Shown piece by piece: positions 6,523 to 49,190 of a stretch of 64,000 bases of DNA (position 1 is its first letter; each line of letters begins with the position of its first letter). The DNA lies in sequence record JN673056. One strand, 5' to 3'. The notes under the pieces were generated by a model, which ran no database searches, was not told where the DNA came from, and worked only from the letters and a program-made list of their open reading frames with translations. The stretch comes from Escherichia phage PhaxI. A program made the translations under genes and the position numbers.

Positions 6523-7845
6523 TTAAAACAGCGACTTTATCAGCCCCTTCCTGAAATACGGGTTGCTGTCTTGAGCAATACCGTCAGCAGTCACGTAAAC
6601 CTGCGGGTCTTGGTTAGCCGGAATCTGAACGAACGGGTTAGCACAGATGCCGTAACGGGTTTTGAACGCCATACGCGGAGCGAAGGTGGTTTCACCCTGG
6701 GTGCGGTACATTTCCAGCGGCACATACGGCGCGAAGAAGATACCGGCATCCAGCGCAGTTGCGCCTTTGTATGCCAGAGTGATATATTCTGCTACAGCAT
6801 ACGGGTCAACATAGACGCACATACCGTTGGACAGAACACCAGCGAAGGTCTGGCCAGTCGGGTCAACAGCCAGTTTAGTGTTTTCCTGCAGAACCGGAGC
6901 ATAGTCCAGCATGCCAGACATCGCCAGAGCGGATGCCACGTTCGGAGAACACAGAACACGGTTGCCTTTACCACGACGGGTGTCAACACCGATACCGTTC
7001 GCTTCAACTTCCAGCATGAAAGTCAGGAACTTCCATTTTTCCAGCGCCCAACGACCAGAGATGTCCTGCGCGATATCAACAACACCGTTGGTGCCGAATT
7101 TTTTGAAGCGAACAGCACTGAAGTTCATGGTACGGATGAATTCACGGTTCATTTCCGCCTGAATTTCAGTTACCATCACGTCAGACAGGATATTGTCCAC
7201 GTCTTCGCCGTGAATTGCCATCATATCCTGACGCAGTTCATGGCTGTAATCAGCATACAGGCCGCGAGACTTGGCAGTAACGGTCGCTTTCTGAACGGTG
7301 ATACCAACACGCGCCCACGGATTGGTGGTAGTACCCAGCAGTTCCGCGTCGGTTGACGGCATACCTTTACCGATAGTGGTCACGACAGAGCCGGAACCTT
7401 CGATCTCAGCCTGACTGAAGCCTGACGGGTCGCCAGCCTGCACAGTGCCATCACCAGAGTAGCCGGAATCGGCTTCCTGCATGAACAGTTCTTTACGCGC
7501 CTGAGCGGTAGTAGAACCGTCGCCAACGCCTTGGCGAGCACGCAGTGCGAAGATCTGACCATCAGGACCAGACAGCGGCTGAACGCCGAAGAAGTCCATC
7601 GCGATGTTGATCGGCGCCAGACGTTTTGCCATGTCGATCAGGACTGGCTGCCATTTACCGACAGTGCTGTTTACAGAACCAGGAGCGTCGGATTCGCCCA
7701 GGTTTTTAGCGTTCCACTCGGCCTGGTTTTGCATCAGACGGATGGTTACGTTTTCGGCAGACAGAGGTTGGATGGCTTCAGATTCTTTTTGGAGAACTGG
7801 CAGCCACTGTTTGCGCATTTCTTCGGTTACAAGTTTCTTAGTCAT
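6523..7845 (-). CDS. gp23: major capsid protein, T4 gp23-like
   Basis: 440 aa; IAMDFFGVQPLSGPDGQIFALRARQG matches the conserved T4 gp23 segment IAFDICGVQPMNSPTGQVFALRAV; C-terminal NPYFRKGLIKSLF also gp23-like; strong SD; terminator downstream. Confidence 0.85.
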   Translation of the reverse strand: MTKKLVTEEMRKQWLPVLQKESEAIQPLSAENVTIRLMQNQAEWNAKNLGESDAPGSVNSTVGKWQPVLIDMAKRLAPINIAMDFFGVQPLSGPDGQIFALRARQGVGDGSTTAQARKELFMQEADSGYSGDGTVQAGDPSGFSQAEIEGSGSVVTTIGKGMPSTDAELLGTTTNPWARVGITVQKATVTAKSRGLYADYSHELRQDMMAIHGEDVDNILSDVMVTEIQAEMNREFIRTMNFSAVRFKKFGTNGVVDIAQDISGRWALEKWKFLTFMLEVEANGIGVDTRRGKGNRVLCSPNVASALAMSGMLDYAPVLQENTKLAVDPTGQTFAGVLSNGMCVYVDPYAVAEYITLAYKGATALDAGIFFAPYVPLEMYRTQGETTFAPRMAFKTRYGICANPFVQIPANQDPQVYVTADGIAQDSNPYFRKGLIKSLF

Positions 7846-7936: not shown

Positions 7937-8776
7937 TTAGCCGTTCAGCAAGGCGCTGATCTGGCGACGGACGGCTTCGTTGACTTCTTTGCCAACTTCG
8001 TCTTTGTCGTCGTCGTCTTTGTCGTCGCCAACATCATCACCTTCTTTTTTCTGTTTCTTACCTTCTTTGATGTCTTTTTCAGCCTTGTCACCATCCGGCT
8101 TACCCTTTTCATTGTCTTTACCGACTTTGTCAGAGAAGTCATCTTTACCTTCTACCAGATTACGGAAGGTGCGAACACGCGATTCGAATTCAGACTCGGT
8201 CTGGAATTCAATACCTTCCAGCAGGTTGACAACAGTGTCTTTCTTGGTGTCAACCATGCCTTCACAAATGCGATCAATTACGTCGGTGCGCTGGCGTTTA
8301 GTCTCGCTTTCTTTGAGTTGGCTCAACTCTGTATTAGCCATATTGGCGCGTTGTTCTGCTTCAGCAAGGCGACTGGTGAGGGCGGCAATCTGACCGTCTG
8401 GGTCAGTAGCGAAACTCACACCTGCTTCTTTCAGCACGTTGGAGAAACCAGTGAGGAAGCGTTCAGCAGCTTCAGTTTTGATCTGAGCGTCAATAGCTGG
8501 GGCATTTTTGTTAGCCCATTCTTCAACCACCGCGTTGAGGAATGAGTCAACTTTCCCAGCCAATTGCAGAATGAAATTTTCTTTCAGGTCGGCGATTTCT
8601 TTCTGGTGAGATTCTACCAAATTCAGGCGCTCGACGTTGCCAGCTGCTTCGGTTTCTTGGATAGCTTTCAGACGAGCCGCTTCAACTTTCGATTCCAGCA
8701 AATTGGATACTTTATCCAGGAAATCTGGGCTGATGCCGTTAACGCCTTCAAACAGATTTTGCAATTCAGGTTTCAT
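7937..8776 (-). CDS. prohead scaffold protein (gp22-like)
   Basis: 279 aa; highly charged, helix-rich, lysine/aspartate-rich tail; lies between protease and capsid genes as in T4. Confidence 0.55.
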   Translation of the reverse strand: MKPELQNLFEGVNGISPDFLDKVSNLLESKVEAARLKAIQETEAAGNVERLNLVESHQKEIADLKENFILQLAGKVDSFLNAVVEEWANKNAPAIDAQIKTEAAERFLTGFSNVLKEAGVSFATDPDGQIAALTSRLAEAEQRANMANTELSQLKESETKRQRTDVIDRICEGMVDTKKDTVVNLLEGIEFQTESEFESRVRTFRNLVEGKDDFSDKVGKDNEKGKPDGDKAEKDIKEGKKQKKEGDDVGDDKDDDDKDEVGKEVNEAVRRQISALLNG

Positions 8777-8822: not shown

Positions 8823-9491
8823 TCAGCCCAGATGATTCAATGCTGCATCAAGGCGGCGCAGGAAATCGTCTTCAACCTGGATATTGGTTTTCACCAACTG
8901 GTCTACAACTTTCCCTTTAACATCACGAGGCATCCAAATACCCGAAGCCTCATCAAGCTGCCATTCAACAGATTCACTCACAGCCTTAACATAACAAACT
9001 TGTCCAGAAGGACGGTCGACTGCATCAACAGCGGTGAGCATAAAGCCAGGTTGAACGTCATCATAACCGTTTACTGACTTGGTCTCACCCAGGCCACGTG
9101 TAGACACGGCCAGATTGAAGTCTGCTTCGGCCAATGCACGTATGATTTGGCCTTTTGGTGTATTTAAAATTCGCGCCCGACCGATGGCATTAGTGCCTTC
9201 CCAGCGAAGGGATTCGGTTTTGAGTGCAGCTTCCACCAGATTAGGGAAAGGATAGTCAGGATGTGTGACTTCACCGATTGCGCGACGATCTTGGATATAC
9301 TCTTTGTCGTATGCTTCGACAGCAGGAATACCCACTTTCTGCAGATCATAGTTACGCCCGTTACGGTTGACTTGGTTACACATCACAAACGGACCTTCGA
9401 TGAACATGGCCTTCCCACCAGTTGAGGTTGTGGCCTCACCGATTTGAAGATCCTTCCCTATCGCTGTGATCTCACGCAACAGTTTCATCAT
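8823..9491 (-). CDS. prohead protease (gp21-like)
   Basis: 222 aa; position between portal and scaffold genes (T4 order 20-21-22-23); synteny-based. Confidence 0.5.
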   Translation of the reverse strand: MMKLLREITAIGKDLQIGEATTSTGGKAMFIEGPFVMCNQVNRNGRNYDLQKVGIPAVEAYDKEYIQDRRAIGEVTHPDYPFPNLVEAALKTESLRWEGTNAIGRARILNTPKGQIIRALAEADFNLAVSTRGLGETKSVNGYDDVQPGFMLTAVDAVDRPSGQVCYVKAVSESVEWQLDEASGIWMPRDVKGKVVDQLVKTNIQVEDDFLRRLDAALNHLG

Positions 9492-10036: not shown

Positions 10037-11719
10037 TTAAATACTATCGTCTGTTGAACCGGAGAATGGGATAGTCTCAGGTTTAAACTTCAACGGACTA
10101 ACATCTGAACCGCTATAATTGCCAGTTTCATCTGCTTGAACCTTCGGATAGAGACCTTTCTTCTTCTCTTCCGCGATCTTAGCCTGTTGTTCTTTAACTT
10201 CTTCGTCTGACATACGCAGAACATTCCGCATGACATAATCGATGGAGAATATAGAACCAACAAAAGGCTCAACAGTGTTCAGAGAAGCCAGGCGATCATT
10301 TAATATGGCGTTTTCTTGTTGCTCACGAATATAGCTATCAGAAGTGAATTCAAACTTAATAAACGGCTTGATTTTTTCATTCCAATCTTTTTCGTCAGTC
10401 ACGCCTTTCAAAATTAATTGGCGACGTAAAAACTCCATAAAGAAATGGGAGTAACGACGACGTAACCCAGCACAGAACTTGCTGAAACGCAGCTCTTCCT
10501 GTGTAATCTCCGCGAGGTTGGAACCCCCAATGTTAATAGATCCTTCCTCTTGGAGGCGGCTCTTAGGGATCATTAGAGCATCATAGAGTTTTTCACGGAA
10601 ATAGTTCACGTGATCCATTTCGCCCAATTGATTCCCACCCCCAACAGTCGCAATCTCTGTAGCATTCTGACCTTCGCGGCGCGGCAACCAATAATCCTCT
10701 GCAATACCCATAAGATGGGCATTACCTGTTATCTTACCAGTGGTGCGGTCATATGCGTTGCGGTTTTTGAATTTACCCATCATCATGGTCATGTATTCTT
10801 CAGCAGATTTCTTACCGAGAGTACCGACGTCAAGATAGAATGCGCGTTTCTCAGGGGCGCGAGTGATGGCATAAATTACTGTTGCGTCTTCAGTCGTAAC
10901 CAAGTTGTTCAACGGGCGGATTGCAGGATTTAAAAGCCCTGGGACAATACCGTTAGCCAATGGTTCTTCACCACTATCGATATAAACGATACTTTCGTCA
11001 TCAAACACGAGTTCTTGTTGTGAAGGTTGGAAGTTTTGAGAAGTACCTGATTGACCAGTGAATTGGTTCCGATTATAATTCGGATTGTAATAGTATTTCA
11101 GCGTTACAGATTCGATCGCTTCTATACCACCTTCACGCATTGCCTTTTCAACGATGTACACAGGACGAATACAACGAGAATCCAGCATGACCAATTTCTT
11201 GATCCCGCCCTTCTTATTCGTTGGGTCAACAATCACATGATACGCTTGTCGACCATCTACATACCATTTCCGAATCTTTTGATACGCCGTATTTTCAAAA
11301 TCCATCAAATGAATCACTTCTTTGAAACATTCGGTGATAGATTCTTTGACTGATTCAGAAATACCATCAACTTTGTCAAGATTGACTGTCACCGGAGTTT
11401 CGTCTTCCTCACATGTGACAACGTCATTAACAATGATGTCCACAGCTTTGCGGATTTCTGGCTGCTGGGCCATGGACTGATATTCTTCCACAACTGTTTT
11501 AACGCTGAGAAGTTCACTCTCAACGCCAACATAGTTGTAGGTGTTTGCACCGCCCTGAAGGATTATAGAACCGTCTTGAGCATCGTCCAGAGCAACAACT
11601 GTCGCCTTGGTGAGCAACAATTCATCTTGTTTTTGGGCTAACTTATCGGTGTCGACTTTGGCATTGACTAAACCGCCGCCACCAAACAAACCGAAGAACC
11701 CCATGCCGTATCCAGCCAT
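10037..11719 (-). CDS. portal protein (gp20-like)
   Basis: 560 aa; glycine-rich N-terminus; position between the tail tube and prohead genes; SD GAGGA. Confidence 0.65.
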   Translation of the reverse strand: MAGYGMGFFGLFGGGGLVNAKVDTDKLAQKQDELLLTKATVVALDDAQDGSIILQGGANTYNYVGVESELLSVKTVVEEYQSMAQQPEIRKAVDIIVNDVVTCEEDETPVTVNLDKVDGISESVKESITECFKEVIHLMDFENTAYQKIRKWYVDGRQAYHVIVDPTNKKGGIKKLVMLDSRCIRPVYIVEKAMREGGIEAIESVTLKYYYNPNYNRNQFTGQSGTSQNFQPSQQELVFDDESIVYIDSGEEPLANGIVPGLLNPAIRPLNNLVTTEDATVIYAITRAPEKRAFYLDVGTLGKKSAEEYMTMMMGKFKNRNAYDRTTGKITGNAHLMGIAEDYWLPRREGQNATEIATVGGGNQLGEMDHVNYFREKLYDALMIPKSRLQEEGSINIGGSNLAEITQEELRFSKFCAGLRRRYSHFFMEFLRRQLILKGVTDEKDWNEKIKPFIKFEFTSDSYIREQQENAILNDRLASLNTVEPFVGSIFSIDYVMRNVLRMSDEEVKEQQAKIAEEKKKGLYPKVQADETGNYSGSDVSPLKFKPETIPFSGSTDDSI

Positions 11720-12350: not shown

Positions 12351-12809
12351 CTAATTAGTCGTCAATCTTTTAATCTTCATGGAAGAAAAATCAAATCCGT
12401 GGTCAACATTGCTTAAAACGGGTTCTATTTCACACAATTCCCAACGGGGATCTATGAGAGAAACAAGACCAATGTGTTCACCTGTGGATGTCAATTTTGC
12501 TGCAGTTTTACCCAGCATATGACTTCCATCATTACCGCCTTTATTCATGTTGTAACCCATCTCATAAGAATTATATTGAGCGATGAGTTGCTTCTCTAAT
12601 TCCCATTTATGGACTTCATCGGTCTGAGCAATTACAACGAAAGTAAATCCAGATGTTCCATACTTACGCATGGCATCATACAATTCACTTTGGACTCCAT
12701 GATGAAAAGCATTCGCAAAATGCTGATCATATCTTCGTTGTGGGTTATTGGTTACACCGATGTAGACCTTTCCATTAGTTATCGTTTCAATTTTGTATGC
12801 GTATATCAT
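12351..12809 (-). CDS. GIY-YIG homing endonuclease
   Basis: 152 aa; N-terminus IYAYKIETITNGKVYIGVTNNPQRRYDQH is a clear GIY-YIG catalytic motif. Confidence 0.8.
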   Translation of the reverse strand: MIYAYKIETITNGKVYIGVTNNPQRRYDQHFANAFHHGVQSELYDAMRKYGTSGFTFVVIAQTDEVHKWELEKQLIAQYNSYEMGYNMNKGGNDGSHMLGKTAAKLTSTGEHIGLVSLIDPRWELCEIEPVLSNVDHGFDFSSMKIKRLTTN

Positions 12810-29585: not shown

Positions 29586-32369
29586 TTAAATAGAAGAATC
29601 CAATATACGGTAACTAATTAACTTAGTAGGGTCTACAGGATTAATCAGGTTGTAGTACCGTGAAGATACATAATCATTCTCAGAAGAGAACATACCAACA
29701 TACACTTTAGCACCTACACCAGAACAGGCATCCCCACCAGCATTGCTATCCGAGAAGAATGTTAATGAGGAAGTTAATCCGAATATAGAATTAAATGGTA
29801 CGGCTAAATAAGCGCCTCGGAATGACCGTCTGATTCTCTTACCCGTCTGAATATTAAGAATACTCCACCAGAAATATCCAGGTTTAGCACCAATAGCTAT
29901 ATGATATGGTACACCACTTTGTAGTTTAAGGTCGTTAGGTAAATCCCCAGATAAAATTTGGGTTGTACCATCGCCCCCCAATAGCAAAGCAATTGTTTGT
30001 TTTCCAGAAGCGTCTATAACTAATTGAAGATGAAGACTGTTGGATGTATCACTAAACCCTGAACCAATGGCCATGAAGTTAAATACTTCAGCTCCAGATA
30101 TGGTAGGTACTACAACAGCAGCCATGGTAATACCTTCTGGACCTGCTGTTCTTGAATACAGTAATTTATCTTTGTTGGCTTGTGATAGTCTCAGACCATT
30201 TACTTGCCCTACAGAAGATGGGACACTTACATAAACAGGTGTAGTGCTAACACCATCAAATGTAGGGGTCTCGTTCATGGTTTGCAAACCAGTCTTGGAA
30301 TAATTAACCAATCCGTTAATGCTCAGGTCGGAATTGGTGGGGTTGATAATATTGTTATCACCAATAAAGTTAATGCCCATATAACCAGTCTCAACCACAC
30401 CATTAATGGTGACACTACAATCATTAGACAGGAACTGAAAATTGCCTGCACTAGAGTTAGCACCTGAACCACTATTCGCGGCATAATTGAGTCCTACGAA
30501 TCCGTTGATAACTGCATCGCTTTTGTTAAATACGATGTTGTAGAAAGTGTTGTTAGCATTGATGCCGTTACGATTGGTGTTCAATCCGTTCATGGAAATT
30601 GAATATGAATCGCTAATCTCAATGCCATTCCCGCCACAATCTTGTACCTCAATACCATTAATAACCATATTCTGGCTGTTATTAATAGTAATGCCTGGGA
30701 ACTGTCCTACTGTACCATAAGGTTGCCAGTTAGCCCAAATGAATTTACCGCCCAATAAATACGAACCATTACCACAACCATCAAGAACCAGACATTGTTT
30801 ACCGCAGGTATTAACCTGGATATTTGTCCAAGTCCAATCAGTAGTAGCACAACGGACACCCACCTGATTGATGTGGTTGACTAAAAGAGAATCTGTAGTA
30901 ACACTAAAGTTACCACTATCAATATTTAACCCATATTCATCAAAACCTGCTATATGGACCTTAGAAATACACAAGTCGCGTCTTGGGTCTGCGGTAGTGT
31001 GGAACGGATAATCGGCTGAGAGACCTGAAGGAGTTTCTACATAGATACCTGTTGTGCCCGCAGTAAATGGCATGCCTTGTTGTGCACCTGTGCCATATAC
31101 CCCAAAGGCGTCTAATACAATAAGGGAGCATGTATCTTTTATGGTAATACAATTCCCAGTAGCAGAAGGCAACTGATGCAACCTTGAGTAATGTAATCCA
31201 GACCCATAAATAGACGACGTATTATATTTTAACTGGATATTGCTAACGTAATGTGCATCAGTTAATTGTGTGGCCTTACCACTATCCACACAAGATTGTA
31301 CTGGAATAGTATCATCATTAGAACCACCCAAAGCACCAAACATGAATGGGTTAACTCTATCAGCATTAACACGTAACCATGCCGCGCCGCCAACAGTTTT
31401 GATCACAGTACCGTTATTATCAGTCTTTCCTGTACCATCAATTAACGCACGGAATACCCCTCCACCAAGAAGAGTACCCGCAGTGTGTTGCTTAAGAATA
31501 ATGCGTTGTCCATCCATAGTGGGTTCAGTATTCCTGAGATCAGCAACAGAATGGCATTCTCCAATATACTTGGCACCATCATTGCGCCCCAGAGTGTTTA
31601 TCACATTAATAAATGAATCCTCTAAAGGCAACAAATCAACCTGCACATCACCTGGGTTGTAATTCAATTTCCCAGCAGATACAGAAGAAATGACAGAACC
31701 ATCAGGAATGGTTGGTAAACCATAACTGGTTTGCGTCGCTATATCATAAACAACTTTCTTCCCATCCAACAAAGATATGGTGTCCGTACTAACGATGACT
31801 TCAGAGTCTTTTACATTAGCAGAACGGGCGATTTCTTGAATACTTCGGTCAAACGCCGGACTGATATTCGGTTGTTTAACAGACATTTCAGCGACTACCC
31901 AAACGCCTGCAGTCAGTGCAGTTTGCAAAGACACTTTCCCTGTCGTGCTGTTATAGGAATATTCAATTTCGGGTGTTTTGTACTCGCCACCGATATAAAG
32001 AGATTGGACACCATAGGATGTGAAATCAGGAGTGAACTCGGTTTCACCTCCCACGGCCTGAAATTTGTATATGCGGATACCTTTGGCTGTATCTTCTGGC
32101 GAAAGAATTTTATCGAATAAGCAATACACAACATCGCCTTTGGACAATGCGCGCCCGAGATTCAACGTATTTCCTTCGATTTCAAAGTTGTCTAACGGAA
32201 CTTGCATACCACCGTTGATTGTGACTACGCCAGTGACAGGATAGAACGGCAAGGAAAGGAAAGTTTCTCCACCAACATTTGATTTATACGTGAAAGGAAT
32301 CTGGTGGGGAGCTGTGATTACGCCGCCGAATAATTCTTCTACATTTCTGGTCATTTGAAAATACCCCAT
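29586..32369 (-). CDS. tailspike protein with right-handed beta-helix-like domain (927 aa)
   Basis: Asn/Gly/Ser-rich repeats such as NGIEISDSYSISMNGLNTNRNGINANN; related anchor segment near residue 170; CTAAATACCCC motif upstream. Confidence 0.65.
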   Translation of the reverse strand: MGYFQMTRNVEELFGGVITAPHQIPFTYKSNVGGETFLSLPFYPVTGVVTINGGMQVPLDNFEIEGNTLNLGRALSKGDVVYCLFDKILSPEDTAKGIRIYKFQAVGGETEFTPDFTSYGVQSLYIGGEYKTPEIEYSYNSTTGKVSLQTALTAGVWVVAEMSVKQPNISPAFDRSIQEIARSANVKDSEVIVSTDTISLLDGKKVVYDIATQTSYGLPTIPDGSVISSVSAGKLNYNPGDVQVDLLPLEDSFINVINTLGRNDGAKYIGECHSVADLRNTEPTMDGQRIILKQHTAGTLLGGGVFRALIDGTGKTDNNGTVIKTVGGAAWLRVNADRVNPFMFGALGGSNDDTIPVQSCVDSGKATQLTDAHYVSNIQLKYNTSSIYGSGLHYSRLHQLPSATGNCITIKDTCSLIVLDAFGVYGTGAQQGMPFTAGTTGIYVETPSGLSADYPFHTTADPRRDLCISKVHIAGFDEYGLNIDSGNFSVTTDSLLVNHINQVGVRCATTDWTWTNIQVNTCGKQCLVLDGCGNGSYLLGGKFIWANWQPYGTVGQFPGITINNSQNMVINGIEVQDCGGNGIEISDSYSISMNGLNTNRNGINANNTFYNIVFNKSDAVINGFVGLNYAANSGSGANSSAGNFQFLSNDCSVTINGVVETGYMGINFIGDNNIINPTNSDLSINGLVNYSKTGLQTMNETPTFDGVSTTPVYVSVPSSVGQVNGLRLSQANKDKLLYSRTAGPEGITMAAVVVPTISGAEVFNFMAIGSGFSDTSNSLHLQLVIDASGKQTIALLLGGDGTTQILSGDLPNDLKLQSGVPYHIAIGAKPGYFWWSILNIQTGKRIRRSFRGAYLAVPFNSIFGLTSSLTFFSDSNAGGDACSGVGAKVYVGMFSSENDYVSSRYYNLINPVDPTKLISYRILDSSI

Positions 32370-32386
32370 AAAGGATTTGCCAATAT

Positions 32387-32397
32387 GGGGTATTTAG
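32387..32397 (-). promoter_or_regulatory. late-promoter-like motif CTAAATACCCC
   Basis: Minus-strand CTAAATACCCC upstream of the 927-aa tailspike gene; embedded in inverted repeat AAATACCCCAT...ATGGGGTATTT. Confidence 0.45.
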
Positions 32398-35400: not shown

Positions 35401-35570
35401 TTGTAACGCACAGAAGATGGAAGACCTGTAACTTCAGTATCTTCAGGAAATGTCATTACGGCACCAGGGGAATGCTCAATAGTGCCGGAGTTGTTGAAGC
35501 CTTTTATGTTCGAAGACTCAGAAGTTTCTAAACCCAAAGGGAAAAGAGGCTGTGTTGGTTTGTTGGCCAT
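32460..35570 (-). CDS. tailspike protein (1036 aa)
   Basis: Internal domain VYFSVGAVLSGYKVIYDKVTQRSYFIP...YRWDG nearly identical to the N-terminus of the 474-aa ORF; beta-helix-like repeats; CTAAATACCCC motif upstream. Confidence 0.65.
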   Translation of the reverse strand: MANKPTQPLFPLGLETSESSNIKGFNNSGTIEHSPGAVMTFPEDTEVTGLPSSVRYNPDSDEFEGYYENGGWLSLGGGGIRWETLPHAPSSNLLEGRGYLINNTTGTSTVVLPSPTRIGDSVTICDAYGKFATYPLTVSPSGNNLYGSTEDMAITTDNVSATFTWSGHEQGWVITSGVGLGQGRVYSREIFTQILASETSAVTLNTPPTIVDVYADGKRLAESKYSLDGNVITFSPSLPASTELQVIEYTPIQLGNGGGSSSSTITWVYNGGSAIGGETEITLDIVVDDVPAIDINGSRQYKNLGFTFDPLTSKITLAQELDAEDEVVVIINGTPNIYNQIDYTLREVARVTNVKDTEVVYFSVGAVLSGYKVIYDKVTQRSYFIPELPTGTTAVSLSSSAVLVHSAGSVDLGALAVSREEYVTLSGTFDSGAVINTKNELLTHTNGKYRWDGSLPKTVDAGSTPETSGGVGLGAWLSVGVASLKSNLNKPNGLSYIGTVSSVSELSSIAGLIGDSIILDSYVDGFNLGGGVMVAVNSDTVVDNIVTFQGNGVVWKRKLFNGVVDVYEAGYTGTGDLAIFINKINAVGFDCVVPVSGEITTPIIFDIAKGALIGKNKCTLIESASATGGYYLTIVNTDTDYTNRDVINATALMTGVSFVGKGTRKLAIGGSTSGEVSELRISNCGFISTAGIEFLDNAYRILFDKCTLSRSFTNSVIFNSPANSGEVIKFNHCWMVDNGGPFTFVNGQFIFDSCSLPAVKKSRYFDPVVALSDNATMVFTNGNIEYQPGQSFVGFTVDGSSRLSISDSTILLPNDYSTVPIVNNGDGVVILNNCSLPLYGNTTIATGFATRQLIGGLSKKVMSRGCYPRAGFITSNWDLGCIVSPHINSISNGSGQFNNISNWALSQTGSGVVTATVGNDVPNDLMFSTSFVLSVPSVGAAANFTQTIIDCEPGRYFQLGFWAKNTTTTLASIRFLDQQGNAVADSIGYNIPVGNTFNFYALVDCVPPGAYKAEINFNVSSIVGGIAIHNVIYGLI

Positions 35571-35603
35571 TTGTAATACCCCTAAATGTATTCATGTCAT
35601 CTA

Positions 35604-35614
35604 GGGGTATTTAG
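35604..35614 (-). promoter_or_regulatory. late-promoter-like motif CTAAATACCCC
   Basis: Minus-strand CTAAATACCCC upstream of the 1036-aa tailspike gene; inverted repeat with TAATACCCCTA at 35574-35584. Confidence 0.45.
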
Positions 35615-43583: not shown

Positions 43584-43689
43584 AACACAATGAGAGAAAC
43601 TGAAGTGAGAAAGCTCGGTTAAACGAGGGAGTAATTCAGGAGTATCTCACCACTAAATAAACCAGTTGTTCAATAAACAATTGGTGAGT

Positions 43690-43890
43690 ATGATGAAAAC
43701 GTTCGGTGATTTTCTTACTGAGTGGGATGGTCTCGCTACCGACAACAAAGAGATTGTTGAGTTTGTTGAAAAGCGAGGCGATAAGTGGGTTGTCCTTGAC
43801 CACACCAAGACTAAAGTTCTTGGGACACATGACACCAAAGCTGACGCGGACGCCCAATTAAGGGCGATCGAAGCGAATAAACATAGTTGA
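43690..43890 (+). CDS. hypothetical small protein (66 aa)
   Basis: ATG at 43690 with SD GGTGAG; CTAAATA motif about 35 nt upstream; sits inside the RNA island. Confidence 0.4.
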   Translation: MMKTFGDFLTEWDGLATDNKEIVEFVEKRGDKWVVLDHTKTKVLGTHDTKADADAQLRAIEANKHS

Positions 43891-46883: not shown

Positions 46884-48179
46884 ATGAACGAGAAAGCTCA
46901 GAAACTCTTAGAACACACCAAGCAGATGATAGAAGAAAATGCATCGCCTATCATCTTTGCCCCATACGTCCCTGTTGTCCTTATGGGTGATCGGAAAACA
47001 ATCTTCAATGCTCTCTCACTTGATAGAAATATCATCCATTGGGAAGACTATCTCTACAAACACACCCCGTGCGAACTCGTTGCCAACCCTGAAACTAATC
47101 AGCAGGTCTGGTTCAAACGTGAAGATTACTTCGCGCCGCTGTCTTGTTATATGAATGGTAAGCAGGGGATCAATGGTAGTAAATTGCGTCAGGCCATCTG
47201 GCTGATGGTTGAGCATTTAAAAGCCGGAGGCTCCCCAGACCTTATCCATGGTACAGTTGTTGGTAGTCCGCAGTCCCCTATGGCGACGGCAGTCTCTCGG
47301 CATTTCGGCGGCAAGACAACTACAGTCCTGGGCGCGACCAAACCAACCACCTGTATGAACCACGATATGGTTAAGATGAGCGCCTGGTTCGGCAGCGAAT
47401 TCAACTTTGTCGGTTCGGGTTACAACAGCACTATCCAGCCGCGCTGCAAGAAATTGATTGAGCATCAGAATCCAAAAGCATATTATCTAGAGTATGGGAT
47501 CACTCTGGATCATACGTTGCATTCTCCGGAGAGGATTGCAGGATTTCATATGCTGGGCGGCGAGCAGGTTGCTAACATTCCGGACCATATCACAGATCTG
47601 ATCATTCCTGCTGGTTCATGTAATTCTTGTACCAGCATTTTGACAGGTCTGGCAATGCACCCGAAACCGAATCTGAAAAATGTATATCTGATCGGGATTG
47701 GTCCCAACCGTCTGGACTTTATTGAAAGCCGTTTGCGTATTATTGAAACAGCTAATCTTCCGCACATAACGGATTTCACTCGTTGCTATCACGACACCCA
47801 TTATTATGTGTATGGTAAGAAGGATCTTCAGCATGCCTCTAAGAGCGTTTCGCTGGCTGGCCTCCTGATGGGTATCCGCGAGAAGGGAGAGCCGGAGATA
47901 ACGCTCCCACGCTTTGCAGTACACCATTGGGATTTGCATACAACGAATTGGGTTCGCTATAATGACCTGATGGATTACCAGTGGGGCGATATTGAGTTGC
48001 ATCCTCGCTATGAAGGCAAGGTCATGACCTGGATCCAACAGCATAAGCCAGAACTGCTCAACGAAAACGCTCTGTTCTGGATTGTTGGTAGCAAGCCGTA
48101 TATTGAGCCAATGAAGGCAGCATGCCCCGAATTGTCTATGCCGGAACAAGTTCCCGTGAACGAGTTTACCCCTGATTGA
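46884..48179 (+). CDS. PLP-dependent enzyme-like protein (tryptophan synthase beta-like fold), candidate DNA-modification enzyme
   Basis: 431 aa; GINGSKLRQA resembles the PLP-lysine motif of fold-type II enzymes; SD AGGAGAAA; function inferred. Confidence 0.45.
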   Translation: MNEKAQKLLEHTKQMIEENASPIIFAPYVPVVLMGDRKTIFNALSLDRNIIHWEDYLYKHTPCELVANPETNQQVWFKREDYFAPLSCYMNGKQGINGSKLRQAIWLMVEHLKAGGSPDLIHGTVVGSPQSPMATAVSRHFGGKTTTVLGATKPTTCMNHDMVKMSAWFGSEFNFVGSGYNSTIQPRCKKLIEHQNPKAYYLEYGITLDHTLHSPERIAGFHMLGGEQVANIPDHITDLIIPAGSCNSCTSILTGLAMHPKPNLKNVYLIGIGPNRLDFIESRLRIIETANLPHITDFTRCYHDTHYYVYGKKDLQHASKSVSLAGLLMGIREKGEPEITLPRFAVHHWDLHTTNWVRYNDLMDYQWGDIELHPRYEGKVMTWIQQHKPELLNENALFWIVGSKPYIEPMKAACPELSMPEQVPVNEFTPD

Positions 48180-48185
48180 TCCCTC

Positions 48186-48196
48186 CTAAATACCCC
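48186..48196 (+). promoter_or_regulatory. late-promoter-like motif CTAAATACCCC
   Basis: Exact CTAAATACCCC about 23 nt upstream of the ATG at 48219; part of inverted repeat ATACCCCA...TGGGGTAT. Confidence 0.45.
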
Positions 48197-48218
48197 ATAC
48201 GACCAGTGTGGGGTATCT

Positions 48219-48668
48219 ATGAAAACCTTTCTAGAATTTTATCGCGAATCAACGTTACCTGATTTTACGAATATCGTTTTGTATCATGGGTCTAATGTTG
48301 AATTCGATATATTTGATTTTGAAAAATTTGGCCAGACTGACTCTGGTACGATGGGTGCTGGATTTTACCTGACAGGGGATCCAGAAAAGGCACAGATCTA
48401 CGCAGAAAATGCCGTGCGCTATCGTCAATCTGGTGAACCTGTTGTCATGGCATTTCGTGTTAAGGCCAAGAAGACTCTTGTAATAGATTCCAACAATGTT
48501 TCGGTGTGGGAAAATAAAATGCGAGAGTTGGGGATAAAGCCTGGTAAGATACATGATAATGTGAAAGAACTTGTCAACAAAGGGTTCGATTCTATAGCCT
48601 CTATGAGTGCCAATAACGTTGAGGAAATGGTGGTGTTTAAGCCAGGGCTGGCGACCAGAGAAGCCTAA
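48219..48668 (+). CDS. hypothetical protein with ADP-ribosyltransferase-like motif arrangement (speculative)
   Basis: 149 aa; LYHGS ... GAGFYLT ... VEEMVVF spacing resembles H-Y-E class ADP-ribosyltransferases; CTAAATACCCC motif upstream. Confidence 0.35.
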   Translation: MKTFLEFYRESTLPDFTNIVLYHGSNVEFDIFDFEKFGQTDSGTMGAGFYLTGDPEKAQIYAENAVRYRQSGEPVVMAFRVKAKKTLVIDSNNVSVWENKMRELGIKPGKIHDNVKELVNKGFDSIASMSANNVEEMVVFKPGLATREA

Positions 48669-48703
48669 ATAGTCCAAAGCGGTTTATTCAAGAGGACATT
48701 ACC

Positions 48704-49162
48704 ATGCCAATTTCGAAATTATTTGAAGCGGATTCCCCAGCAGATATGCCTATCTGGACTGGTGTTCAAGACGGGACAACGATTGAATTCTTTGAGCGCG
48801 GGGAAACAGGCGCTGAAGAGATTTATGCTTCCGTACAAGGGACAGACGTCGTCCGCGCCGCCGTAGCTCTTGCTACATTTTTAGAGGACGCCCCGATTGA
48901 CGGTATCCCGTTTGAAGCCCATGTGGACCCAGAAGACCCGACGTCTATCATCATTACAGTCCAGGGTTCTGAATATACATCTTACAGTATTGAGCACGAT
49001 GAAGAAACAGGAGCGCTGTTTATAGCCACGGATCTTCAATTGGAAGATGACGAAATTGAATATCTGAAACAGAATGGTCGTCTTCCAGAGTACTCTGACG
49101 AAGAATTGGATTCAGCGTTTGACAACGTAGACGATGAAGACGACTTTTGGGATGGGAAATAA
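48704..49162 (+). CDS. highly acidic hypothetical protein
   Basis: 152 aa with Asp/Glu-rich C-terminus; SD AGAGGA. Confidence 0.5.
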   Translation: MPISKLFEADSPADMPIWTGVQDGTTIEFFERGETGAEEIYASVQGTDVVRAAVALATFLEDAPIDGIPFEAHVDPEDPTSIIITVQGSEYTSYSIEHDEETGALFIATDLQLEDDEIEYLKQNGRLPEYSDEELDSAFDNVDDEDDFWDGK

Positions 49163-49190
49163 ACAAAGGGGCATTAAGCCCCTTTGTTTT
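49161..49190. terminator. bidirectional hairpin terminator between convergent genes
   Basis: AAAGGGGC-ATTAA-GCCCCTTT hairpin followed by GTTTT. Confidence 0.55.

Follow-up and report, generated by a model that had tools for sequence, protein, structure and literature searches.

A stand-alone ADP-ribosyltransferase gene of Escherichia phage PhaxI with a predicted T4-like capsid-targeting leader: a putative injected head protein

The ADP-ribosyltransferase (ART) Alt of phage T4 is known to be ejected with the DNA, and virion delivery was also predicted for the ART-PolyVal domains (Pfam PF18760, Tox-ART-HYD2 clade) of polyvalent proteins (Iyer et al. 2017, PMC5512222). For the small internal proteins (IPs) of T4, the first ten residues of IPIII suffice for capsid targeting; within this stretch, targeting depends on residues 4 and 7, while the gp21 protease, which cuts after L/I-x-E, needs residues 8 and 10 (PMC9026906). 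One of these proteins, IPI*, inhibits the GmrS/GmrD restriction enzyme. Here we describe a locus in a 64,000-nt stretch of Escherichia phage PhaxI (JN673056; the whole stretch is called the window below), a ViI-like Kuttervirus (Ackermannviridae) genome, in which a gene for a 149-aa ART is followed by a gene for a highly acidic 152-aa protein. With moderate confidence we read the 149-aa protein as a stand-alone enzyme of the H-Y-E clade that is made late, packaged in the head as an 'internal protein' and injected, and thus as a functional analogue of T4 Alt.

The initial annotation had placed the 149-aa protein in the H-Y-E class on short motifs, and both open reading frames (ORFs) and the cited motifs (H23-G24-S25, G46-A47-G48-F49-Y50 and E135-E136) are indeed present. 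Residues 19-142 match PF18760 with 42.2 bits (E = 1.7e-10; curated gathering cut-off 31.2 bits), and DUF3990, from the same clan, scores slightly under its own cut-off. A profile search of 1.8 billion representatives returned 1320 relatives, most of them domains within proteins of 1000-7000 aa and a few of them stand-alone proteins of about 150 aa; every distant match also carries PF18760. All 21 orthologues share H23, G24, S25, G48, F49, Y50, Y61 and E136, with E135 variable. Among 55 near-full-length distant domains sampled from the top 150 hits, ten of which belong to proteins of 200 aa or less, we found H23 in 55, Y50 and Y61 in 51 each, D124 in 54 and E136 in 47. As the PF18760 score lies above the cut-off and the residues are conserved in orthologues and distant domains, the motifs are not chance matches, and the H-Y-E assignment holds because H23, Y50, Y61 and E136 are kept across distant relatives. 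The protein has the motifs HG[ST] ... GxG[FV]Y ... Y ... GYD[GS] ... E in common with the ART-PolyVal domains and, like them, is predicted to act after virion delivery. It differs in being a stand-alone ORF with a T4-type leader, not a domain embedded in a large multidomain polyvalent protein, and in not keeping the C-terminal QIKS motif.

Alignment of PARP4 with a profile of diverse family members set GxGFY on GSGIYFS and the GYDS...E[FM]VV segment (GYD..(x)..E-[FM]-VV in the profile) on GYDSV...DDEFVVY. The catalytic motif of PARP4 is tabulated as 'DDE' (PMC7955679), and since the alignment sets E136 on the Glu of this motif, E136 is the predicted catalytic Glu. D124 was considered as the catalytic acid and rejected, as the same alignment puts it in the GYDS strand preceding the strand of the catalytic Glu. 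The H, Y, Y and E residues of the PhaxI protein are spaced by 27, 11 and 75 residues, a spacing resembling that of diphtheria toxin (about 33, 11 and 83) and PARP1 (34, 11 and 81). The phage protein is, however, far smaller than these enzymes, is devoid of translocation, receptor and regulatory domains, and has marginal sequence similarity to them (best profile E = 0.0019).

Structure prediction, named as a check by the initial annotation, gave an ADP-ribosyltransferase fold (AF2 model; predicted local distance difference test score, pLDDT, 87), and the top structural match was one domain of a solved capsid-internal ejection protein. The match to DarT was weak, and that to the anti-CRISPR ADP-ribosyltransferase AcrF11 was weaker than those to PARP or diphtheria toxin. 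AcrF11 is made after entry and is not known to be packaged, and this analysis gave no evidence for a CRISPR target of the PhaxI ART. A single-sequence search against PDB sequences returned nothing meaningful. Membership of the Alt/ModA/ModB family of R-S-E enzymes, from which the protein had already been set apart, is excluded by the different active site and structural matches. The likeness to Alt is that of a late-made ART of a T4-type head which is processed by gp21 and injected (for the PhaxI protein this is a prediction) and which is encoded by a non-essential accessory gene. Alt differs in its 682 aa, its R-S-E clade and its N- and C-terminal propeptides (MELITELFDE...), as opposed to 149 aa, the H-Y-E clade and an IP-type leader in PhaxI, and the two are homologous only through the superfamily fold. 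As a separate observation, ART residues 20-85 match the PADLOC candidate-defence models PDC-M13A (E = 3e-9) and PDC-M13B (E = 9e-6), which indicates that host defence, too, makes use of related ART/DUF3990-like domains.

Residues 1-11 of the ART, which are not part of the predicted fold, have a pLDDT below 50, and the first ten, MKTFLEFYRE, closely match the N-termini of the T4 internal proteins in NC_000866 (MKTYQEFIAE in IPII and IPIII, MKTFKEF in IPI). Both are small proteins in which positions 4 and 7 are aromatic and position 10 is Glu, whereas position 8 is Tyr in PhaxI, not Ile or Leu, and the mature parts of the T4 proteins are unrelated to the ART, although no T4 internal protein was set against an ART fold. 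Orthologue leaders follow MKTFL[EQD][FY][LFY]x[ED], with M1-K2-T3-F4 invariant and a perfect L-x-E in many. As in T4, the genome encodes a gp21-type protease and a scaffold core (Table 1). In purified virions of the Dickeya phage LIMEstone1, the orthologues of both the ART (ORF173) and the acidic protein (ORF174) were detected by electrospray ionization tandem mass spectrometry (PMC3296691 Table 2; GenBank notes of this phage), and two 'unknown structural proteins' of this phage confirmed by mass spectrometry (MS), ORF080 and ORF082, start with MKPFIQYFNE and MSKPSFLQFMQE. An internal head protein ejected with the DNA is the most economical reading of the leader, protease and virion evidence together. 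The leader would send the ART to the prohead scaffolding core, the gp21-type protease would cleave it after E10, and the mature protein of about 16 kDa would be packaged and later ejected with the DNA. At the very start of infection, the injected enzyme would then use NAD+ to ADP-ribosylate a host target, most likely a protein involved in transcription, translation or defence.

Leader-like N-termini were also seen elsewhere. A 66-aa ORF of PhaxI (43690-43890, + strand), conserved in Matapan and without a Pfam hit, starts with MMKTFGDFLTE, which resembles a T4 capsid-targeting sequence (CTS) with a perfect L-T-E, and has its own CTAAATA at 43653-43659, and may thus be another small internal protein of the head. 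In LIMEstone1, ORF007 (L012 6316-6549; MKGFQDFLED) and ORF109 (L013 28709-29251; MSVKMKGAEFKEYYHD) are possible further members of a leader-tagged set. ORF007 adjoins the Hoc-like ORF006 and ORF109 the von Willebrand factor A (vWA) protein ORF108, and both neighbours are virion proteins confirmed by MS.

Both genes of the locus appear to be late genes. The motif CTAAATAcCcc has been published for ViI-like phages (PMC7283392). The window contains 17 copies of CTAAATA vs. 7.6 expected, a count not reached in any of 100 shuffles, and 11 of the 17 precede an ORF start by 26-49 nt. These belong to the two genes described here, the 66-aa ORF and eight others, of which seven are morphogenesis genes (baseplate wedge, two tail spikes, a 1612-aa structural protein, neck, sheath and scaffold). 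In the LIMEstone1 record a 'putative late promoter' is marked at the equivalent positions of both genes. The remaining motif-associated ORF, a GIY-YIG homing endonuclease gene (12351-12809, - strand), starts 26 nt after a CTAAATA between the tail-sheath gene and the next downstream gene, and is the sole one examined that falls outside the morphogenesis genes.

The promoter motif of the ART gene runs into a stable hairpin (Table 1). The 5' arm of the hairpin overlaps the motif (ATACCCC), and the 3' arm, whose last base is 2 nt short of the AUG, spans GGGG, the only Shine-Dalgarno-like run. Matapan, LIMEstone1 and Ag3 have the same stem with differing loops; Rfam holds no family for the hairpin. 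The leader of the acidic gene, in contrast, folds no better than shuffled sequences (z = 0.36). In T4, late transcription begins a few bases beyond the TATAAATA box, and genes e, soc and I-TevI carry their late promoter within the 5' arm of a hairpin, with the ribosome-binding site masked by the 3' arm. The ART gene shares this arrangement, but the likeness is architectural only. No terminator separates the ART gene from the upstream gene for a pyridoxal phosphate (PLP)-dependent decarboxylase, a DNA-modification gene. By analogy with T4, the ART gene would be transcribed from its own late promoter, the hairpin across promoter and ribosome-binding site would keep read-through RNA from the PLP gene silent, and only late transcripts, with a start predicted near 48198 inside the hairpin, would be open for translation into ART.

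The leaders of two tail-spike genes (32350-32397 and 35565-35614, both - strand) have the same architecture: CTAAATACCCC opens a hairpin of -19 kcal/mol (z about -5), which closes with GGGGUAU just before the start region. Such leader hairpins would account for the 'cCcc' of the published motif, which would belong to their 5' arm.

Table 1. Features of the PhaxI locus and of the head genes referred to in the text (positions in the window).
Feature	Position	Strand	Remarks
ART gene, 149 aa	48219-48668	+	PF18760 family
Predicted capsid-targeting leader and prohead-protease site MKTFLEFYRE	48219-48248	+	codons 1-10
Predicted catalytic codon H23	48285-48287	+	
Predicted catalytic codon Y50	48366-48368	+	
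Predicted catalytic codon Y61	48399-48401	+	
Predicted catalytic codon E136	48624-48626	+	
CTAAATA late-promoter motif, ART gene	48186-48192	+	full match to family motif CTAAATAcCcc; 33 nt before ATG
ART leader hairpin	48190-48216	+	11 bp; dG -18 kcal/mol; z = -5.2; 0/200 shuffles fold as well
Acidic protein gene, 152 aa	48704-49162	+	isoelectric point (pI) 4.05
CTAAATA motif, acidic gene	48665-48671	+	includes ART stop codon TAA (48666-48668)
Ribosome-binding site AAGAGGA, acidic gene	48690-48696	+	free of occluding structure
Bidirectional intrinsic terminator	49166-49185		ends + strand unit and convergent - strand unit
PLP-dependent decarboxylase gene, ViI gp226 orthologue	46884-48179	+	Pfam PALP; PHROG 3650
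T4 gp21-type prohead protease gene	8823-9491	-	Peptidase_S77; Pfam E = 3.6e-28
gp22 scaffold gene	7937-8776		beside prohead protease gene
gp23 gene	6523-7845		beside prohead protease gene
gp20 gene	10037-11719		beside prohead protease gene

The product of the second gene is as acidic as first described, with 40 D+E vs. 6 K+R and a net charge of -34, and is the most acidic of the ATG-initiated ORFs of at least 100 aa in the window. Its homologues are limited to Ackermannviridae, where they occur in more genera than the ART and include proteins of Serratia and Erwinia phages with 40-45% identity. In the predicted model (pLDDT 78), a beta-beta-beta-alpha-beta-beta-beta-beta-alpha core is followed by a disordered, acidic tail with an invariant DFW at its end (DDFW in PhaxI). 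Searches of Pfam, PHROG functions, NCBIfam and PADLOC were all empty, a PDB profile search gave only noise, and Foldseek against BFVD returned its own orthologue alone. For this protein considered alone, a tentative reading is that it is either an injected DNA mimic or anti-restriction protein, or an accessory protein of the prohead core or scaffold, and of these two we favour the second. A DNA mimic would be in keeping with the charge over 152 aa, the late promoter, the detection of the orthologue in virions and an N-terminal leader with L-F-E (MPISKLFE; MPxSKLFE(S/A)(E/D) in orthologues). A core protein would fit its conservation over the sampled Ackermannviridae genera, including Erwinia and Serratia phages, with a mean column identity of 81% among orthologues. 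It would also fit the resemblance of the leader to the scaffold N-terminus MKPELQNLFE and to T4 Alt MELITELFDE, and the MLESKLFIKE, near the T4 CTS, that an internal Met yields in the homologue of a distant phage contig (L014). Three points stand against these: the searches run related the protein to no known DNA mimic or scaffold protein, by fold or by sequence; its conservation is high for an arms-race effector; and its gene is distant from the head gene cluster. Because the protein is so conserved, we lean to a core or internal structural role over that of a fast-evolving effector; for a DNA mimic the charge fits and a fold match is lacking, so that this role is neither supported nor excluded.

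Two further features of the acidic protein were observed. At the end of its disordered tail (residues 143-152, 49131-49162), an invariant D-x-x-D-F-W stands within a run of Asp and Glu, also in the orthologues, which recalls the acidic, aromatic-ended C-terminal tails with which SSB and T7 gp2.5 dock onto partner proteins. In the homologue of Salmonella phage Vi01 (P0024), residues about 41-62 are unlike those of all other orthologues and the register is regained afterwards, which is probably a compensating pair of frameshifts due to sequencing errors in the record.

Several points weigh against the ART as an injected head protein of the H-Y-E clade. The ARTs of polyvalent proteins have been described as H-Y-D (Iyer et al. 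2017, PMC5512222), while the acidic residue of strand 5 is Glu in this protein and in most of the sampled relatives. The cleavage motif is Y-R-E here, not the canonical L/I-x-E, and a few orthologues, e.g., with MKTFLEFYYG, have no acidic residue at position 10. The leader pattern speaks for packaging, as it finds T4 IPII and IPIII, has no match across 42 kb of unrelated phage contigs, and was located at 10 places among about 83,000 ORF residues, with 8 of 10 within the first 16 residues vs. about 0.7 expected, but it was written after seeing examples, so that this enrichment is partly circular and indicative only. The LIMEstone1 detection came from one unique peptide per protein in a phage of a different genus, and the same study detected non-structural proteins at one peptide each (PMC3296691). 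The proteomics papers on Ag3, phiD3 and EspM4VN analysed major bands only and mention neither the ART nor the acidic protein. Late-promoter function is motif-based, and a literature search found no transcriptome.

Some of these points would suit an ART that stays in the cytoplasm as an unpackaged late enzyme and modifies host or phage proteins in the infected cell, like T4 ModA and ModB, which are expressed independently of injection. The single LIMEstone1 peptide may be carry-over, some leaders are without the acidic residue at position 10, and the late-promoter motif and hairpin bear on timing only, not on packaging. We nevertheless consider an unpackaged enzyme rather unlikely. Its invariant M1-K2-T3-F4 leader matches the T4 CTS and lies outside the folded domain, other virion proteins confirmed by MS bear the same type of leader, ART-PolyVal is otherwise embedded in proteins predicted to be delivered by virions, and the top structural match is a domain of a protein ejected from the capsid interior.

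We assign a low probability to the possibility that the ART-like protein is an NAD+ glycohydrolase, or a pseudo-ART that does not catalyse and has, for instance, a binding or structural role in the head. In so small a protein no target-recognition region is identifiable, which would agree with such a role. Yet the full H-Y-Y-E set is conserved throughout the family, whereas pseudo-PARPs typically lose the His or the Glu (PMC7955679), and comparison with Matapan revealed strong purifying selection on both genes (dN/dS 0.034 for the ART and 0.018 for the acidic protein; dS about 0.55-0.64, with 0.55 for the ART). We therefore predict, with the same moderate confidence as for the injected head protein as a whole, that the ART is a catalytically competent member of the H-Y-E clade.

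The initial annotation had further proposed that the acidic protein is an immunity factor or partner of the ART, and that the two form a host-takeover or anti-defence module. In Kuttervirus, Limestonevirus and some Taipeivirus genomes the two genes lie side by side in the same orientation, and both orthologues were found in LIMEstone1 virions. Their distribution, however, speaks against a pair. The acidic gene was present in 276 phage records vs. 225 for the ART, and about 50 related genomes have the neighbouring genes but lack the ART; the acidic gene was thus seen without the ART, but never the ART without the acidic gene. In Shigella phage Ag3 (FJ373894, L002 2841-3010) a deletion scar lies between the PLP gene and the acidic gene, and it retains the ART leader hairpin and the first ~25 nt and last ~45 nt of the ORF, with about 400 nt gone. 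From this scar it follows that the ancestor of at least two subfamilies had the ART gene and that a deletion led to its loss; the gene is functional yet dispensable. The Klebsiella phage phi1_175010 (Taipeivirus) and Erwinia phage Bue1 also have the acidic gene and no ART; a small ORF of phi1_175010 was considered as an ART remnant and rejected for want of similarity.

Contig L014 (Logan SRR5431744, 10.3 kb) comes from a distant Ackermannviridae-like phage with a rearranged gene set, and its order is ART (49% identity), PLP enzyme (69%), an 85-aa ORF, a p227-like protein and the acidic protein (43%, pI 4.05), so that three genes stand between the two. We also noted a terminator and an ATAAATA box ahead of the L014 ART. 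At three distant stand-alone ART-PolyVal loci no small acidic neighbour was found. In PhaxI, the promoter motif and the ribosome-binding site are separate for the two genes. What is conserved is the end-of-unit position of the acidic gene and the linkage of the ART to the PLP decarboxylase gene. The chaperone matches of the acidic protein are no better than its hundreds of matches to kinase N-lobes. The ART and the acidic gene are not an obligate pair, and a toxin/immunity or effector/inhibitor relation, in which the acidic protein would neutralise the ART or join it in one module, is unlikely. The role of dedicated immunity factor is thus not borne out, and of the proposed host-takeover or anti-defence module the part that stays plausible is the ART as a virion-delivered enzyme, not the two-gene module. 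The acidic protein is probably a late virion protein in its own right, conserved more widely than the ART, and would be a further constituent of the head interior or core, not an ART antidote.

The linkage to the PLP gene is the only hint of a DNA-related role of the ART. The ViI orthologue of its product, gp226, completes the hypermodified nucleoside 5-(2-aminoethoxy)methyl-2'-deoxyuridine (5-NeOmdU; PMC8989533), and the two genes are linked in two orders, PLP then ART in PhaxI and ART then PLP in L014. DNA-modifying enzymes of the ART fold exist, e.g., DarT. An ART acting on nucleic acid, for instance one that ADP-ribosylates thymidines of host DNA while 5-NeOmdU shields the phage DNA, is nonetheless very improbable. 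Recombinant ViI gp67, gp160, gp226, gp243 and gp247 reproduce the native base without the ART (PMC8989533), and Ag3 keeps its PLP gene after the loss of the ART. Shielding would moreover be incomplete, as only up to half of the thymidines are modified in such phage DNA. The weak DarT match, the base reconstitution without ART and the PLP gene of the ART-less Ag3 together outweigh such a role. We give least credence to an assault in the first minutes in which the injected ART hits host nucleic acid (DNA thymidine in a DarT-like manner, or another nucleophile), the phage is spared by 5-NeOmdU and the co-packaged acidic protein serves as a DNA mimic; if true, the ART-PLP linkage would be an arrangement of 'weapon plus self-protection by DNA hypermodification'.

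Since the family assignment is already in public annotation, where UniRef names the 149-aa orthologue 'ART-PolyVal-like domain-containing protein', what is new is not the core identification but the T4-type leader, the promoter/hairpin arrangement, the Ag3 scar and the uncoupling from the acidic gene. Our literature search found no paper on an Ackermannviridae ART. Almost all records name both genes 'hypothetical protein', and isolated ones use 'ADP-ribose transferase', 'DarB-like antirestriction protein' or '(putative/unknown) structural protein'. Phages of the ViI-like group, Kuttervirus and its relatives, are in wide use for biocontrol and therapy of Salmonella and E. coli O157. If the ART is an injected head protein, such phages would deliver an H-Y-E ADP-ribosyltransferase, of the class of diphtheria toxin and PARPs, into their hosts, the first H-Y-E case tied to a T4-type capsid-targeting leader. 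It would also offer a small and tractable model for the many ART-PolyVal domains of giant polyvalent proteins, with ART-less relatives such as Ag3 and its deletion scar as natural controls. The recognisable leader would then be a mark of the injected protein repertoire of Ackermannviridae, and could be used to load foreign proteins into their heads, as done in T4.

The locus as a whole is well conserved. It has 98% identity to that of phage BRM 13313, a four-kilobase region around both genes is kept in 268 phage records, and the terminator that follows the acidic gene is also annotated in Matapan, Ag3 and LIMEstone1. The mechanically called ORF of the PLP decarboxylase has 431 aa. Because its PHROG alignment starts at residue 37 and the Matapan annotation gives 397 aa, the true start is probably an internal Met near 46986-46992.

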